Both the position numbers and the translations under genes were made by a program. The notes below the pieces were generated by a model, which saw only the letters and a program-made list of their open reading frames with translations, was not told the DNA's origin and made no database searches. A stretch of DNA of 11,474 bases from the UHGV virus genome UHGV-0044052; one strand, 5' to 3'. Below are positions 1 to 11,474 of the stretch, piece after piece (position 1 is the stretch's first letter; every line of letters begins with the position of its first letter). Origin of the DNA: a virus.

Positions 1-413
1 GAGATAACCTTACACTGGTAACAACGGGCGCGGTGATGCGGCATTTACGTTGGGCAATGCCGGAGGCGTTGTTGATATCAGTACGTATGAATATACCTTG
101 CTGGATAATGGCAACCATAGCTGGAGTCTCGCAGAGAATCGCGCACAAATGCCCCCTTCAACCACGGATGTGCTGAATATGGCGGCAGCACAACCGCTGG
201 TATTTGATGCAGAACTGGACACCGTGCGTGAGCGTCTTGGTAGCGTAAAGGGCGGCGATGTGGAGTTCGGCAATTAACAGCCGCAACAACGTGACCACTG
301 ATGCAGGCGCTGGCTTTGAGCAAACATTGACGGGGCTAACGCTTGGTATCGACAGCCGTTTCTCCCGTGAAGAAAGCAGCACAACTCAGGCGGGTGTAGT
401 CTGGACGTTCTGA
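1..413 (+). pseudogene. 3' remnant of an outer-membrane beta-barrel (autotransporter-like) gene, reading frame broken
   Basis: Two consecutive plus-strand frames: one runs from the window edge to the stop at 275-277, the other from ~249 to the stop at 411-413 and ends ...QAGVVWTF with alternating hydrophobic/aromatic residues and a terminal Phe, typical of a beta-barrel C-terminal strand. Continuity needs a frameshift near 250-277. Family assignment is tentative. Confidence 0.3.
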
Positions 414-2379: not shown

Positions 2380-2793
2380 TCAGATGGTTTTCAGTATGCG
2401 ATCGATGTCGCCGTCATCGCCTGGGTTTCTGCCATCGTATGCCATGCCAGCTGATACGGTTTGTGGGCTGTGCATGTCCATAAAGTTTTCAAAGGCTGCG
2501 GTAAGCTCTGGTGCAACCTTCGGGCGTTCCTGCTCTATGGTCATGTTCAGGATGTTTTTAGCCGTATCAACATCGATACAAGGCACGTTTGCCATTGCAC
2601 GCAACAGCGGCTGATAGTCTTTATGCTCATGAAGCGCCATAATCGCATCAGCGCGCGGCTTGTCCTGCTCTTCCAGTTTGTTGAGTTGATATACGGCCTC
2701 GTAGGTTGATAAACCTCTGTCAGCCATTGCCCGCGCTTCGGCTTTAAATTTACTCGCCAGCGGTAGCGCCATGATGCTTTCATTCGTTGCCAT
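2380..2793 (-). CDS. Hypothetical protein (137 aa) in the head module
   Basis: ORF with a strong SD (GGGGGA) 4-5 nt upstream of the ATG at 2793, immediately downstream of the decoration gene. No recognisable family. Confidence 0.6.
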   Translation of the reverse strand: MATNESIMALPLASKFKAEARAMADRGLSTYEAVYQLNKLEEQDKPRADAIMALHEHKDYQPLLRAMANVPCIDVDTAKNILNMTIEQERPKVAPELTAAFENFMDMHSPQTVSAGMAYDGRNPGDDGDIDRILKTI

Positions 2794-2805: not shown

Positions 2806-3093
2806 TTATCGGGCCAGCGGCTGAACGGATACGCCAGAACCCGCAAAGGCGGCGCATTTTTTCGCATCGGTGTCGACGCTCTCAGGCCAGTTAACGGCGG
2901 CAATATTGAATATCCCCGTCTTGTAACACTGTGCTGATTTCTGCTTTGACGTGTCCACGAGGTACGAAGTCAGATAAACAGCCTTGCCAGATTCCTGACC
3001 ATCCCACGGCTTAAACTCGCCATTGTCCGCCAGCATCAGCGGCAAAATGTACCAGCGTCGTGGATACCTGCTGACTGCCTGCAAATAACTCAA
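2806..3093 (-). CDS. Head decoration protein, lambda gpD-like (start uncertain)
   Basis: LPLMLADNGEFKPWDGQESGKAVYL...YKTGIFNIAAVNWPESVDTDAKKCAAFAGSGVSV aligns with lambda gpD [27 protein letters not shown]...[35 protein letters not shown]. The ORF as drawn starts at a TTG. The only SD-preceded ATG nearby (3109) is in another frame. Confidence 0.7.
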   Translation of the reverse strand: MSYLQAVSRYPRRWYILPLMLADNGEFKPWDGQESGKAVYLTSYLVDTSKQKSAQCYKTGIFNIAAVNWPESVDTDAKKCAAFAGSGVSVQPLAR

Positions 3094-3120
3094 TGTATGG
3101 AGTGTCCATAGAATCCCCCG

Positions 3121-4176
3121 TTAAGCAATTTTGACGGTAACAAATTTGCGAATATCTGCCGGAACCGGCTGCGGTGCGCTGTGCGTCTGCACGTACTCAA
3201 TCGCCGGATCGCCGTCCTCAATCCAGTTTTTCGGGTAGTACATGTTTTGCGTTGCGCCTGTTCTTACCGCTTCCTGATCCATAATCGCACCATAGGCCAC
3301 CAGCCCTTTGTTGTTGGTGTTGCCCAGGACCAGCAAATCAGGATCAAGGAAATATTTTTCTGTGCCGTCGCTGTCAGTGTATTTGCCGGAATAGACGATA
3401 AGGGCAATATCGCCCAGATAGCCTTTAAAGCTCACCACTTCGCCCAGGTTTTTACAGGCCAGCTCTGCGGCGGACTCTGAACCACGGGAAAGATCGTACA
3501 GCTCACGGAATTTTTTAAAGCTGCGTAACGTTCGCCATACCTCAACGCCCATAATCATGACGTTTGCGGGGCAACCAGCCTGATCGGCGTATAGTTCGAT
3601 ATCATAGATTGGATCGTGGGTTTCTTTGTCCTGCTCTGACCATTTTTTCCCGTCGGCCTGCTCTATGATGTTTTTTTCCGGTATCTTCCAGTCGATTTCA
3701 TAGCGCTCTATGCCTTCGCCCTCAATGATGTTTTTTCCGGTCGTTACCGCATTTACCGCCAGCCATTCCACGCGCGCTTTTATGGCGTTTATCTGGCGGC
3801 GCATATTGCCAGTAATCAGGCGCATACGGCGATAGGTAGGGTCGTTAAGCTGTGCCGGATCTTCTCCAGCCATGCGCATGATGGTTTTCGTTGGATCGAT
3901 TTCGTGCTTTGGCTTCATGTAGCCAGGTTTAATCGTGCTGGTTTCGTACCCTTTATCGCGCTGAACCTGGCTACCCACCATAGGCGAACAAAACGCCGAC
4001 ATGGTGACTTCTTCAATGTCCAGGGTATCCAGCATGATGTTTTGCGTGTTGAATGTCGCCACGTTCGGGAAAAACAGCGCGGTAAACAGCGGACTAAATT
4101 TAAATTCCGCAATATCCTCGCGATTCAGGTACGCGAAAAGCTGGTGTGTGTTAAGTGCCATTGCTTTGACTGCCAT
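3121..4176 (-). CDS. Major capsid protein, lambda gpE-like (HK97 fold)
   Basis: 351-aa product with conserved blocks shared with lambda gpE along its length: EFKFSPLFTALFF / KFKFDPLFLRLFF, KPGYMKPKHEIDP / TPGYVKPKHEVNP, DPTYRRMRLI / DPAYRRRRII, GDIALIVYSGKY / GDVAIVVYSGQY, YYPKNWIEDGDPA / RYPKNWVTTGDPA, SAP near the C-terminus. Confidence 0.9.
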   Translation of the reverse strand: MAVKAMALNTHQLFAYLNREDIAEFKFSPLFTALFFPNVATFNTQNIMLDTLDIEEVTMSAFCSPMVGSQVQRDKGYETSTIKPGYMKPKHEIDPTKTIMRMAGEDPAQLNDPTYRRMRLITGNMRRQINAIKARVEWLAVNAVTTGKNIIEGEGIERYEIDWKIPEKNIIEQADGKKWSEQDKETHDPIYDIELYADQAGCPANVMIMGVEVWRTLRSFKKFRELYDLSRGSESAAELACKNLGEVVSFKGYLGDIALIVYSGKYTDSDGTEKYFLDPDLLVLGNTNNKGLVAYGAIMDQEAVRTGATQNMYYPKNWIEDGDPAIEYVQTHSAPQPVPADIRKFVTVKIA

Positions 4177-5782: not shown

Positions 5783-7537
5783 TTATAAAAACGCGTCGCA
5801 ATCGTCTGTTGTTATTGCGTTAGTCTGCGTTACTCCTTTAACTTTCCGCGTAATATATTCATGTCCGTAAACTTTCGCGGCTGGCTTCATAGCCTTGCCA
5901 AAGTCATTTACGTTTAGCGGTTTGCTCCTGCCTGCGTACGCCATAAACGCCAGATAGACGCGGTAAAGGCTGTTTCTGGTCGTGTACTTCACTGAATCGC
6001 CACCGCCGCCCATCATCAGGCCGCGTGCTTCCTCCAGAAAATTCAGGAACTGGCAAAACTCAATAACCGGATCCGTCTGTTGCTTTATTGCCAGTGCTTC
6101 ATCACCGTCACGCTGTTCAATGAGTAAAGCCCGTGCCTTTTCAGGGTCGGCAAAGTTCGCCAGCAAGCGGCGGATAATGACAGGGATTTCAGCCGCGATC
6201 TTTTCCGGTAGCTCCCTGTCTTTTTCTGCCTCGCTTACGATGTTATCGAACCGGAATATCACCCGACGACGTGCCACACCTCCGGCCCGTTCGGTGAATA
6301 TCATCGGATTGTTATTGGTTGCCAGCACCACCGCCCTGATTACCGCCGTAAAACGCTTTTCATATTTCGGGTTAATTTCCACGGGGTCGCCGCCCGTGAT
6401 TTTCTTGATGCCCGTTCCTTCGCCTGTATATTTCGGCTGGTCTGCCAGGACGATAAGACGACTCCCGACAACCTGCGCACGCCCACCAGCATCATCAAGC
6501 GATGTCATTTCAGCGCTTACCGTGTTTTGTTTCCCTGCCAGAAGGCTGGCTATGTGTGTGAATGTACTTTTACCGCTCCCGCCGTCTCCGGTGGCCTCAA
6601 TAAACATCTGCCAGTCGTACCGGTTCGCCATAATCATGTACAGCGCGGCACATATACGCATCATCTTGCGCGGGTCTTTTCCGGCTGCGTGCTCAAGCCA
6701 TTTATGAAAGTTTGGCGCGTTATCGCGGATGTTCTCCCCTGGTGCTGGTGGCGTGTACTCAATGCCGTTGTGCGTGGTGATCCAGTTCTCCGGCGTGTGC
6801 GGGGAAAATTCCCCCGTTTTCAGGTCAAGCGCACCATTGGCGAACGGCAGCAAATCGCCGGACGGCTCGCCCATTGGTTCGGCAATAACTTTTAACGCTT
6901 CCACGGCGTTATTGATTACGCGCTTGCTGAAAGTGGCCCTGTGCTCTGAATAGATCGCCACCATTTCGCGGCTAAGTTCCATTGTGCTGACCGGACACCA
7001 TACCCCGCCGCGCCATACGTGAACGATTTCACTTTCAGGATGTACGCAAACGCCATCAAAGCGATCGGCAAGCAGCTGCGCGCGCTCACTGTCCGCCATC
7101 TGCGAAAGTTGCGCCTTTTGCTTTACCGGAAGCTCAATGACCAGACCATCAGAAAGATTCTGGCGCTCACGGGCCAGATATTCGCGCCAGTTCTCCACCT
7201 TCTGACCGTGCATACCATCAGGGTAAAAATTTGCATCCTGTACGCCTGCCGCCGCCAGCTTCTGACCAATCGCCTTTATCATTACTGGCGCAAGATATCC
7301 GGCCCTGAATATGCGCACGGATTTTCTGCCTTCCGGCACAATTTGCAGCTTATCCAGTTCTGATAACTGCTGCTCCCCAAGCCACACAGGAGGCTCATTA
7401 TCTCCGGCCATACGCGCATCATGTTCCTGCCATTGTTTCGCGTGTGCCCAGGCATCACTACCCGCAAAAATAATGACTTCTGTTCCTTTGTGTTTTATGC
7501 CGCGTGACTGCTGTTTTACGTTCGGTGCCAGTTTCAT
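5783..7537 (-). CDS. Replication primase/helicase (P4 alpha / D5-like, SF3 helicase domain)
   Basis: 584-aa product with Walker A GDGGSGKST in the central region and a C-terminal region plausibly DNA-binding. SD AGGGGT upstream. Start overlaps the preceding ORF stop (ATGA). Domain assignment is from motifs only. Confidence 0.8.
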   Translation of the reverse strand: MKLAPNVKQQSRGIKHKGTEVIIFAGSDAWAHAKQWQEHDARMAGDNEPPVWLGEQQLSELDKLQIVPEGRKSVRIFRAGYLAPVMIKAIGQKLAAAGVQDANFYPDGMHGQKVENWREYLARERQNLSDGLVIELPVKQKAQLSQMADSERAQLLADRFDGVCVHPESEIVHVWRGGVWCPVSTMELSREMVAIYSEHRATFSKRVINNAVEALKVIAEPMGEPSGDLLPFANGALDLKTGEFSPHTPENWITTHNGIEYTPPAPGENIRDNAPNFHKWLEHAAGKDPRKMMRICAALYMIMANRYDWQMFIEATGDGGSGKSTFTHIASLLAGKQNTVSAEMTSLDDAGGRAQVVGSRLIVLADQPKYTGEGTGIKKITGGDPVEINPKYEKRFTAVIRAVVLATNNNPMIFTERAGGVARRRVIFRFDNIVSEAEKDRELPEKIAAEIPVIIRRLLANFADPEKARALLIEQRDGDEALAIKQQTDPVIEFCQFLNFLEEARGLMMGGGGDSVKYTTRNSLYRVYLAFMAYAGRSKPLNVNDFGKAMKPAAKVYGHEYITRKVKGVTQTNAITTDDCDAFL

Positions 7538-8509: not shown

Positions 8510-8729
8510 GTACCCCTCCGCATTTTTTTTCGTTAGAAATAAGCGTTCTTCTTTCCTGTTCATCGCTCAGGAATACGCAGACCTCACCGCTAAGGCGTTT
8601 AAGTAAGCCGATGATTGCCCCTGATTCGCTGTCGGTCATCATGCCAGGGTAATCCTCTGCCAGTGCGCAAATAACTTCGATTTGGTGGGCGCGTTCTGCT
8701 GCCTGTTGTAGTGTGATTTCCTGGCTCAT
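8499..8729 (-). CDS. Hypothetical small acidic protein (76 aa), early operon gene 2
   Basis: ATG at 8729 overlaps the stop of gene 1 (ATGA). Non-repetitive composition. Confidence 0.5.
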   Translation of the reverse strand: MSQEITLQQAAERAHQIEVICALAEDYPGMMTDSESGAIIGLLKRLSGEVCVFLSDEQERRTLISNEKKCGGVHVQ

Positions 8730-8926
8730 AAGCCTACCCCCTGACGAATACGGGCAGCAAATACCATCACGCAGCCAGCCGGAGATTGCTGACGCGCTTC
8801 CTGTTCGCTGGTGGCCTCGATGGTAATCACGCGCGGTTGTGCCGTGCTCAGGGCGATAAAACGCCAGATGTATTTATTCAGGTTGTACGAGTCCCGCCCT
8901 TGCGGGTGTATGGTATAATTTCTCAT
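8726..8926 (-). CDS. Hypothetical protein (66 aa), first gene of the early operon
   Basis: ATG at 8926 with SD GAGG ~6 nt upstream. Corresponds to the 3' end of the 355-aa ORF in the track, whose 5' part is low-complexity and antisense to the RHH gene and is not used. Confidence 0.45.
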   Translation of the reverse strand: MRNYTIHPQGRDSYNLNKYIWRFIALSTAQPRVITIEATSEQEARQQSPAGCVMVFAARIRQGVGL

Positions 8927-9122
8927 AGCTGCCTCGATAATCTTGCTATCGTTGGTGGTTAGAAGCCCCGTTACTGCTCCTACAGTGCGGGGTTTCGTCG
9001 TTTCTGCACCTTGCATTAACAAGGTGTAAGTAACTTTATTTATAGGTGGCTTACATGTCAATGCTTTTATGTAAGACTTTTTATGTGTATATTGTCTTAC
9101 ACTTTCATTGAGAGGATTACAG
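8927..9122. promoter_or_regulatory. Divergent promoter/operator region (genetic switch)
   Basis: Four TGTAAG / CTTACA half-sites arranged as two inverted pairs (9025-9030 / 9050-9055 and 9070-9075 / 9096-9101; the second is GTAAGAC-N16-GTCTTAC). Palindrome CCTTG-cattaa-CAAGG at 9009-9024. Candidate leftward promoter TTGACA (plus 9057-9062) - 18 bp - TAAAGT (plus 9033-9038). Candidate rightward -10 TATATT at 9088-9093. Confidence 0.6.
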
Positions 9123-9428
9123 ATGGCTACAGGTTCAAAAAACGCAAAATCACAATCACTGACAGCTCGGATCCCGCATGATGTTATTGAAGGCATGGAA
9201 TCCGTAAAACTGGACGGTGAAAGCAACGCCGGATTCATAGTAACCGCCATGCGCGGTGAAATCGCCCGCCGCCAGGCAGAAGGAAGCGGAGAAAACCCCC
9301 TGATTTCTTCGCACGATGCACTGGCGCAGGTGGAAAAACTCGGAATCAAAGCCGCCGAGGAGATCGGGCAGCTCGTCACTGTCGCACGTGAAGAACTCCA
9401 GCGCCGCAAGACCAAAGAACCAGAGTAA
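9123..9428 (+). CDS. Ribbon-helix-helix (CopG/Arc-like) DNA-binding protein, putative island repressor
   Basis: ATG at 9123 with SD GAGAGGA. N-terminal SLTARIPHDVIEGMESVKLDGESNAGFIVTAMRGEIARR fits a beta-strand / helix / helix RHH pattern. Divergent from the early operon across the operator region. Confidence 0.6.
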   Translation: MATGSKNAKSQSLTARIPHDVIEGMESVKLDGESNAGFIVTAMRGEIARRQAEGSGENPLISSHDALAQVEKLGIKAAEEIGQLVTVAREELQRRKTKEPE

Positions 9429-9485
9429 TCACCATCAGCGCCGTGGTGTAAGGTATTACGGCGCATTGCTATGCAGGACAACACA

Positions 9486-9659
9486 ATGACCGATAAAGAA
9501 TTGACCAAAACATTATCACCGGCACGGAAAAGACGGCGCAGAAAGATAGAGCATGAATCAGAAAGATTCGCGCCATGTGCTTTTGCCCTTGAGCAATTCC
9601 TTAAAGAATACAGGGAAAAGCGCTCATTGCAGGTATGGCAACGAACTGAACCAGACTGA
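9486..9659 (+). CDS. Hypothetical small basic protein (58 aa)
   Basis: ATG at 9486 with AGGA 8 nt upstream. Contains an RKRRRRK basic patch. Alternative start at 9471 as in the ORF track. Confidence 0.4.
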   Translation: MTDKELTKTLSPARKRRRRKIEHESERFAPCAFALEQFLKEYREKRSLQVWQRTEPD

Positions 9660-9753
9660 TTGCATTGCCCACCAGCCTGATAGCGGCTATCATCCCCGTG
9701 CTTATGTTTGGGATCATATACACATAAGGCGCAGCGGGTTAATTGTTCAGAAA

Positions 9754-9781
9754 GGCGGCTCCATATCGGGGCCGCTTTTTT
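9754..9781 (+). terminator. Rho-independent terminator between convergent rightward genes and alpA
   Basis: Stem GCGGC / GCCGC (9755-9759 / 9771-9775) with an ~11-nt loop, followed by tttttt (9776-9781). Confidence 0.55.
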
Positions 9782-9807
9782 CGTGTTTGTCATATCTGTG
9801 ATACCCG

Positions 9808-10509: not shown

Positions 10510-11474
10510 CTACACGGCTCGGATACCCCTTTTACCACTGGCGAGGGTTACGCCCGTCGCCGCAGCCTCGACAAATTCGCCCCACCAGCGCATCAGCACG
10601 ATGCGTTTTTCTATGTAGTTGCTCCGGTTGTATGCCCGTCTAACTTCGTTGGTGTCGACGTGGGCAAGTGCCGCCTCTATTACGTCCGGCTCGAATCCTT
10701 CCTCGTTCGCTGCTGTGCTGAATATGGCGCGTAATCCATGAGACACCAGCACGCCAGCGAATCCCATACGCCGCAATGCTGCGTTAGCTGTCTGGCTGTT
10801 CATCGGCTGCTGTGGGTCTTTCAGACTTGGGAAAACGTAATTGCGGTGGTGGCTGATTGGTTTCATGGCCTCCAGCACCGCCATAGCCTGACCGGAAAGC
10901 GGGATAACGTGATCCCTGCGCATCTTCATGCGTCCGGCAGGTATCGTCCATTGCTTCGCGTCCAGGTTGATTTCATCCCACCGCGTTGATGACGCTTCGG
11001 CGGGACGGGTTACGGTCAGTAACTGCCATTCAATCAGTAATCTGGTCTGCCGTTCTGTTGCCGATACTGATAAAGCCTGCATAAGCTCCGGCAGCTGTTC
11101 GGGGCGGATTGTTGGCATATGTTTTTTTACAGGTGAGGGAAACGCCTTACGCACATTCATAGCCGGATTGGCATCAATCAGCCCACTGTTGGCGGCGTAA
11201 TCCATTACCTCATTAACGCGCTGTAAAACCCGCTTGAGTGTTTCCAGGTTGCCGCGCTCCTTGATGGGTGTAAGCACTTCAACGAACCTTCGGGCGGTGA
11301 GGGTATCTATTGGCGTGTTGCCGATGAACGGGAATACATATTTATCCAGCGAACGCCAGATGTCTTTAATCGTGTTGGGGGCCAGATTCTGGCTGATTTT
11401 CACCTGGTACCATGCCGCCGCCACATTTTCGAACGTGTTCCCTTGTCTTCGGGCCTCTGTCTCTCTTTTTTGCC
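10510..11474 (-). CDS. int: Tyrosine integrase, P4-type (N-terminus beyond window end)
   Basis: C-terminal catalytic region with HGLRAIFSTAANEEGF...ALAHVD...VRRAYNRSNY (conserved R, H-x-x-R and Y). The reading frame stays open upstream of the listed GTG through the window edge (...TEARRQGNTFENVAAAWYQ), matching the NTFE..A..W motif of P4-family integrase N-termini. Confidence 0.9.
   Translation of the reverse strand, partial: QKRETEARRQGNTFENVAAAWYQVKISQNLAPNTIKDIWRSLDKYVFPFIGNTPIDTLTARRFVEVLTPIKERGNLETLKRVLQRVNEVMDYAANSGLIDANPAMNVRKAFPSPVKKHMPTIRPEQLPELMQALSVSATERQTRLLIEWQLLTVTRPAEASSTRWDEINLDAKQWTIPAGRMKMRRDHVIPLSGQAMAVLEAMKPISHHRNYVFPSLKDPQQPMNSQTANAALRRMGFAGVLVSHGLRAIFSTAANEEGFEPDVIEAALAHVDTNEVRRAYNRSNYIEKRIVLMRWWGEFVEAAATGVTLASGKRGIRAV

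Follow-up and report, generated by a model that had tools for sequence, protein, structure and literature searches.

EcCICFT073 is a Gram-negative phage-inducible chromosomal island (PICI), i.e. a phage satellite, in which a gpE-like capsid gene, c1499, is directly followed by c1500 (AAN79969.1). The island is packaged in full-size phage capsids, and lambda plaque formation was not restored when c1499 or c1500 was deleted (Fillol-Salom et al., PMC6092414). A pair of sites, cos1 and cos2, has also been described for EcCICFT073, and why some islands carry two was left there as an open question (PMC6739421). In CFT073 the capsid gene of the island precedes the decoration gene, whereas in the lambdoid prophage of the same strain decoration precedes capsid (L094 669-2071 versus 45692-47125). 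The capsid proteins of the two elements are 45% identical, and the prophage decoration protein is 43% identical to that of the island over residues 32-105.

The window, which is the whole stretch of 11,474 nt analysed here, is identifiable by its gene content as an EcCICFT073-type PICI: it carries an integrase, a primase module, two cos-like sites, an Rpp/TerS-like gene, and capsid and decoration genes in the same order. A Pfam search also located an SSB gene in the island, and the order of the capsid gene, the decoration gene and a 137-aa gene is the same in the window and CFT073. The components outside the capsid-decoration part are as follows.

10510-11424: integrase, listed as a component of EcCICFT073-type PICIs
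5783-7537: D5_N primase (Pfam)
1632-2174: Nu1/Rpp-like gene (Pfam search)
1409-1481 and 2279-2350: two cos-like inverted copies (inverted-repeat search)

The Nu1/Rpp-like gene lies between the arms of this inverted repeat, which is about 73 nt long and shows 88% complementarity over 50 nt and 96% over 25 nt; each arm carries a lambda cosN-like GGGCGGCGACCTCGCGG. The repeat matches the cos1/cos2 pair of EcCICFT073 (PMC6739421). Two further observations concern the annotation of the window. The 355-aa ORF at 8726-9793 (minus strand) has no Pfam match and is called at its full 355 aa by another gene caller, while PGAP annotates only its last 66 codons, as 'Icd-like', and places a YlcI/YnfO gene inside it on the opposite strand. 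By correspondence with the Nissle annotation, the left end of the window (1-383) reaches into a degraded autotransporter pseudogene that lies immediately beyond the island.

All genes and features of the capsid-decoration part lie on the minus strand.

3121..4176, minus strand: major capsid gene of the island, 351 aa, lambda gpE family (Pfam Phage_cap_E, 178 bits, E = 3.4e-52)
3123-3121, minus strand: capsid stop codon TAA
3114..3119, minus strand: Shine-Dalgarno sequence GGGGGA, 4 nt 5' of the true decoration start ATG (3109-3107)
3011..3109, minus strand: 5' remnant of the decoration gene from the true ATG (ORF translation and Nissle alignment)
3028..3042, minus strand: deletion junction, holding the sole remaining copy of the 15-nt direct repeat CCGCTGATGCTGGCG (Nissle 1917 alignment)
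2806..3042, minus strand: 3' remnant of the decoration gene, residues 34-111 (PLMLADNGEF...QPLAR) and stop (translation and Pfam HDPD)
2380..2793, minus strand: downstream 137-aa gene (ORF call) with its own GGGGGA Shine-Dalgarno, intact and untouched by the lesion

The Nissle 1917 counterpart of the capsid gene is annotated 'major capsid protein', and the Phage_cap_E gene ends 11 nt upstream of the decoration start, with GGGGGA inside this gap. The 137-aa gene is labelled 'head-tail connector' in one PGAP record, and a Pfam search with it returned no match.

A sequence-only reading of this DNA had proposed that the decoration gene is split between two frames, and this is borne out: the ORF that opens with the Shine-Dalgarno-preceded ATG and the gpD-like ORF are one nucleotide out of phase. 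The former does lie behind GGGGGA in the other frame, as noted there, and its length is 32 sense codons (3109-3014) and a premature TAA at 3013-3011, not 31 codons. Its translation is MDTPYIELFAGSQQVSTTLVHFAADAGGQWRV, in which codons 1-27 are the same as in the intact protein (MDTPYIELFAGSQQVSTTLVHFAADAG) and are followed by five out-of-frame codons, GQWRV. The 3' remnant sits +1 relative to this frame and overlaps with it between 3109 and 3011. We also confirm that the frame running on from the capsid TAA stays open to the TAA at 2808-2806, being gpD-like from about 3042 (PLMLADNGEFKPWDG...QPLAR), and that its first ATG is codon 20 (3036-3034) counted from TTG 3093. This frame has no Shine-Dalgarno-preceded start of its own, as had been stated; none precedes TTG 3093, TTG 3084 or ATG 3036.

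The origin of the split becomes apparent from alignment with intact relatives. When first the decoration region and then the complete window were compared by megablast with 5,426 complete E. coli genomes, many matches had 100% identity (Nissle 1917, ATCC 25922 and relatives), each split into two pieces, and the matched spans in the records are 32 nt longer than the query (633 versus 601 and 11,506 versus 11,474). Save for these 32 bp, all 11,474 nt of the window agree with both Nissle 1917 and ATCC 25922 at 100% identity. The Nissle alignment contains a single 32-nt gap and no other difference, and the gap falls exactly between two 15-nt repeats. The intact Nissle gene is one ORF of 336 nt and 111 aa (WP_000380881.1); it begins with the same Shine-Dalgarno-preceded ATG and contains two copies of CCGCTGATGCTGGCG 32 nt apart, at CDS nt 68-82 and 100-114. 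The window gene is without one copy and the 17-nt spacer TTATTCAGGAATTTACC and keeps the other copy at the junction, which is the form expected of a deletion at a slippage hotspot bounded by direct repeats. The c1500 gene is also 336 nt long, with 6 nucleotide differences from the Nissle allele and both repeats at CDS nt 68 and 100; relative to c1500, the window allele is shorter by 32 bp and frameshifted.

An indel had been listed as a cause in the sequence-only reading, and that much stands, although the event is not a change of 1 nt but a 32-bp deletion between 15-nt repeats. The TTTT run suspected as its site directly abuts the true lesion, but lies at 3044-3047 and not at 3022-3025, which reads CAAT on the minus strand. 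An extra T in this run, which would give MDTPYIELFAGSQQVSTTLVHLPLML..., is ruled out as the cause of the shift by the Nissle alignment.

The intact protein scores 62.4 bits against Pfam HDPD (PF02924, cut-off 29.1) over profile positions 6-112. It shares the TPLML and WPESVD...AFAGS motifs with lambda gpD and phage 21 SHP (1C5E, 1TD0), is collinear with phage 21 SHP over residues 6-106, and aligns with the 1TD0 and lambda gpD structures over these residues with no indel at the repeats. The 3' remnant of the window still reaches 52.1 bits, also above the cut-off, but only over profile positions 36-112. The Nissle allele is therefore a full-length gpD/SHP gene in a single ORF and the window gene is not: its N-terminal 27 and C-terminal 78 residues lie in different frames, with the intervening sequence deleted. 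Since the intact 111-aa protein matches HDPD and aligns with SHP and gpD without an indel, the two-copy form is the functional, ancestral state.

We propose that misalignment between the two CCGCTGATGCTGGCG copies removed one copy together with the 17-nt spacer, by either replication slippage or RecA-independent short-homology recombination. The loss of 32 nt shifts the frame by +1, so that translation from the real start ends early, after 32 codons, and the remaining 78 codons are stranded in another frame, by chance that of the capsid stop codon. The in-phase relation of the gpD-like frame with the capsid stop is a chance by-product of the 32-bp deletion; we estimate the probability of 27 stop-free codons by chance at about 0.27. 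In all likelihood, the window decoration gene is a pseudogene allele generated by a 32-bp direct-repeat deletion and an orthologue of EcCICFT073 c1500, and the allele is expected to give no functional decoration protein.

The start region of the homologues bears directly on the other explanations that had been offered for the two frames, namely programmed +1 frameshifting, a capsid-decoration fusion by readthrough, and initiation at TTG. The arrangement of capsid TAA, Shine-Dalgarno variant, TTCT and ATG is kept in all 77 two-copy homologous loci, and 62 of the 77 pass a stricter ORF test, each with an uninterrupted 111-aa ORF from the same ATG. The gap between the capsid gene and this ATG is 11 nt in most two-copy loci and 12 nt in ten. 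Because the gap differs in this way between loci, the capsid and decoration frames have no conserved relation, and wherever the decoration gene is intact its phase differs from that of the capsid gene. The comparison with homologous islands, which had been suggested as a check, favours the indel reading in that the homologues are intact, and speaks against recoding in that the split arrangement occurs only in rare deletion alleles. In addition, NCBI PGAP annotates the same allele elsewhere as a frameshifted pseudogene, which counts against recoding of any kind.

Frameshifting or translational bypassing would join the 32-codon ORF to the downstream frame and yield a functional decoration protein, and a +1 shift anywhere in the overlap of the frames (3109-3011) would indeed give a continuous product. 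We nevertheless consider this extremely improbable, as the 62 loci with a single 111-aa ORF need no recoding, all 77 keep the ATG, and the two-frame arrangement was not found as a conserved trait among these two-copy loci but is limited to rare, independently arisen deletion alleles. Moreover, reading 3011-3109 revealed no CUU UGA site of the RF2 type preceded by a Shine-Dalgarno sequence, and a shifted product would still be short of about 11 residues immediately ahead of the conserved TPLML motif. Readthrough of the capsid TAA into a capsid-decoration fusion protein has a practically negligible probability, although the frame is open from TAA 3123 to 2806. In homologues the downstream ORF is not in phase with the capsid gene, the intergenic gap of 11 or 12 nt depending on the locus leaves no conserved fusion, and the in-phase relation in the window was made only by the 32-bp deletion; TAA is, besides, the most efficient stop codon of E. 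coli. Internal initiation at TTG 3093, TTG 3084 or ATG 3036, with function retained by an N-terminally truncated protein, accords with the 92-aa (P0003) and 76-aa (P0002) products that gene callers annotate and with the 52 bits that the 95-aa ORF from TTG 3093 (2809-3093) still scores against HDPD. It is highly improbable all the same: the Shine-Dalgarno-preceded ATG is kept in 77/77 two-copy loci, none of the three internal codons has a Shine-Dalgarno sequence, the residues between TTG and Met represent out-of-frame sequence, and the product would be without the whole N-terminal third (HDPD profile positions 1-35). In lambda gpD, the N-terminal part forms the arm that contacts the capsid.

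We counted the alleles in populations with junction-specific queries. For the one-copy allele (-32 bp), a 36-mer was used whose 28-nt word under megablast is matched only by the one-copy junction. It was found in 2 of the 5,426 complete E. coli genomes, 2014C-4587 and NRZ105019, where the islands lie beside mdtJ and phoQ, respectively, and the PGAP label is 'head decoration protein, frameshifted' in both. The two-copy 47-mer region is present in 595 of these genomes. For expansions, a word-size-limited junction query matched only by three or more copies was employed; a spacer-repeat-spacer 49-mer had been uninformative as a query, since BLAST joined two overlapping pieces in ordinary two-copy genomes. 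No three-copy allele (+32 bp) was detected among the 5,426 complete genomes, while the four-copy allele (+64 bp) occurs in two, PE164 and E105, each as a 400-nt 'frameshifted' pseudogene. Among IMG/VR viral contigs, 76 are two-copy, one (L009) is one-copy, and none is three- or four-copy. Three-copy alleles were found in the metagenome contigs L010, for which there are 19 further similar places beyond the matches listed, and L013. The repeat spacing is exactly 32 nt in the three-copy L010 and L013 and in the four-copy L016 and L017, and such reciprocal gains of the unit are again what a slippage hotspot should show. Variant alleles are rare: they account for 4 among about 599 complete genomes and for 1 of the 77 IMG/VR contigs (about 0.7-1.3% of loci), and the one-, three- and four-copy alleles are all out of frame.

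The window's own allele was recovered by exact-sequence look-up in independent public assemblies, with GCA_017714295.1, the protein EFF0509200.1 and two ENA/Logan contigs as instances; GCA_017714295.1 (L004) carries it at the same narP-side insertion. It is gene-called as a 92-aa protein starting at TTG 3084 (EFF0509200.1, HBA1263328.1; L004) or as a 76-aa protein starting at ATG 3036. A metagenome scan with a junction 22-mer gave four matches, none of them a related locus: by blastn three have no similarity to the decoration locus, and in L006 the match does not extend past the 22-mer. Contigs sampled at one genome per species, scanned at the protein level, contained no relatives, and the family appears to be confined to E. 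coli/Shigella at the similarity level scanned.

Several loci deserve separate mention. The four-copy islands of PE164 (pig) and E105 (fish) (L016 and L017, both 3443-3984) are 1 nt apart over 5 kb. Their terS/rpp-like gene is also frameshifted, which suggests that this island is in decay. The metagenome scaffold L011 (1729-1828) has an N-gap that falls exactly within the repeat array, with two copies of the repeat to either side of it, suggesting either that assemblers break at the array or that copy number was heterogeneous in the sample. In L054, an IMG/VR contig with the locus on the minus strand near the contig end, a two-copy gene with the normal ATG has an ORF of only 79 aa and a divergent tail, reflecting either another lesion or the contig end.

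To judge the independence of the events, 1,350 nt of flanking sequence was compared across 76 loci. Each lineage with a variant allele has an intact two-copy relative 0-4 substitutions away but lies 36-242 substitutions from the nearest other variant lineage. The one-copy lineages are window/L004, L002, L003, L009, L014 and L015, the three-copy lineage is L010/L013, and the four-copy lineage is L016/L017. At least 12 relatives of L003 differ from it over 1,797 nt by the 32 bp and nothing else, and the best relatives of L002 are 98.3% identical, about what the 32-bp gap alone would give. Because the variants are nearer to intact relatives than to one another, the data imply that at least six deletions and two expansions of the 32-bp unit took place independently, with identical endpoints as expected of slippage. 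The site is a recurrent mutational hotspot, since the same unit has been lost or gained repeatedly across lineages.

Recurrent gain and loss of this unit bears the signature of misalignment between short direct repeats, which we infer to be the mechanism. There is no support for a hairpin-assisted deletion: when the repeat region was folded as DNA and compared with shuffled controls, no stabilising secondary structure emerged (z = -0.11), and so nothing other than the repeats accounts for the hotspot. The two CCGCTGATGCTGGCG copies are read in two frames, as AADAG and PLMLA. It is possible that the 15-nt repeat arose by a templated copy event. The edges of the repeat vary between lineages, and O157:H7 is among those with a 14-nt version (window 3028-3042; L001 6259-6305).

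Two other readings concern the deletion itself. If the source genome were two-copy, the 32 bp could have been lost in assembly or consensus calling, and both the otherwise complete identity of the window to many intact genomes and the L011 scaffold, whose gap shows that assemblers can struggle exactly at the repeat array, lend this some weight. We judge it unlikely, however, because assembler k-mers are longer than 15 nt, so that a repeat of this size should not collapse, and because finished genomes produced by different laboratories, with different island backgrounds, have the identical junction, as do at least two further assemblies that share the window's background; expansions of the unit also occur. 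A true deletion could alternatively be one position of a phase-variation switch, in which the decoration protein is ON with two copies and OFF with one, three or four. The recurrence of gains and losses in otherwise identical islands would fit such a switch, as would a 15-nt repeat read in two frames, for which we estimate a chance of about 5e-5 within a 336-nt gene. This reading is very unlikely, as the variants are as rare as given above, the one-copy state has no second repeat left and cannot revert, the ON state holds only about 1.5 repeat units, the repeat edges drift down to 14-nt versions, and no phenotype is known for c1500 (PMC6092414). There is accordingly only a slim chance that the unit is a selected, slippage-driven contingency locus of a phage satellite, reversible at three or four copies and terminal at one. 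Were it one, the switch could tune the mixing of satellite capsid proteins with those of different helper phages.

We thus return to the pseudogene produced by direct-repeat deletion. The lesion in the window is an ordinary gene-killing deletion, and only the recurrence of the 32-bp hotspot is mildly notable. Because deletion of c1500 had no effect on lambda interference and the island is packaged in full-size capsids (PMC6092414), selection on the decoration gene is suggested to be weak and its loss tolerated. The repeated copy-number changes of the 32-bp unit likewise point to weak selection. For annotation, the locus should be labelled a frameshifted pseudogene; it should not be taken for a signal of recoding, for a fusion of capsid and decoration proteins or for a gene that starts at TTG. 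The public 76-aa and 92-aa 'head decoration protein' entries are gene-calling artefacts on a broken allele. The 32-bp unit itself could serve as a natural marker of slippage mutagenesis.

In comparison with gpD and SHP, the island protein is a putative capsid binder, and the window copy encodes only HDPD profile positions 36-112 in one frame. The locus resembles the +1 frameshifting system of prfB/RF2 in having two overlapping frames with an upstream ORF that ends in a stop; unlike prfB, it has an arrangement that its homologues do not share, it lacks the architecture of a shift site, and it was born from a deletion. Another parallel is offered by the hotspots of E. coli lacI, where deletions and duplications between short direct repeats reportedly arise by slipped-strand misalignment (work ascribed to Farabaugh and to Albertini), and for short-repeat deletions Lovett is said to have put forward a RecA-independent misalignment model. 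As at such hotspots, what the decoration gene loses is exactly one repeat copy and the intervening sequence, and the endpoints recur independently, with reciprocal expansions, all of them frame-shifting. The decoration site differs from the lacI hotspots in that it lies in a structural gene of a satellite island and has been seen in natural populations rather than in a mutational screen.
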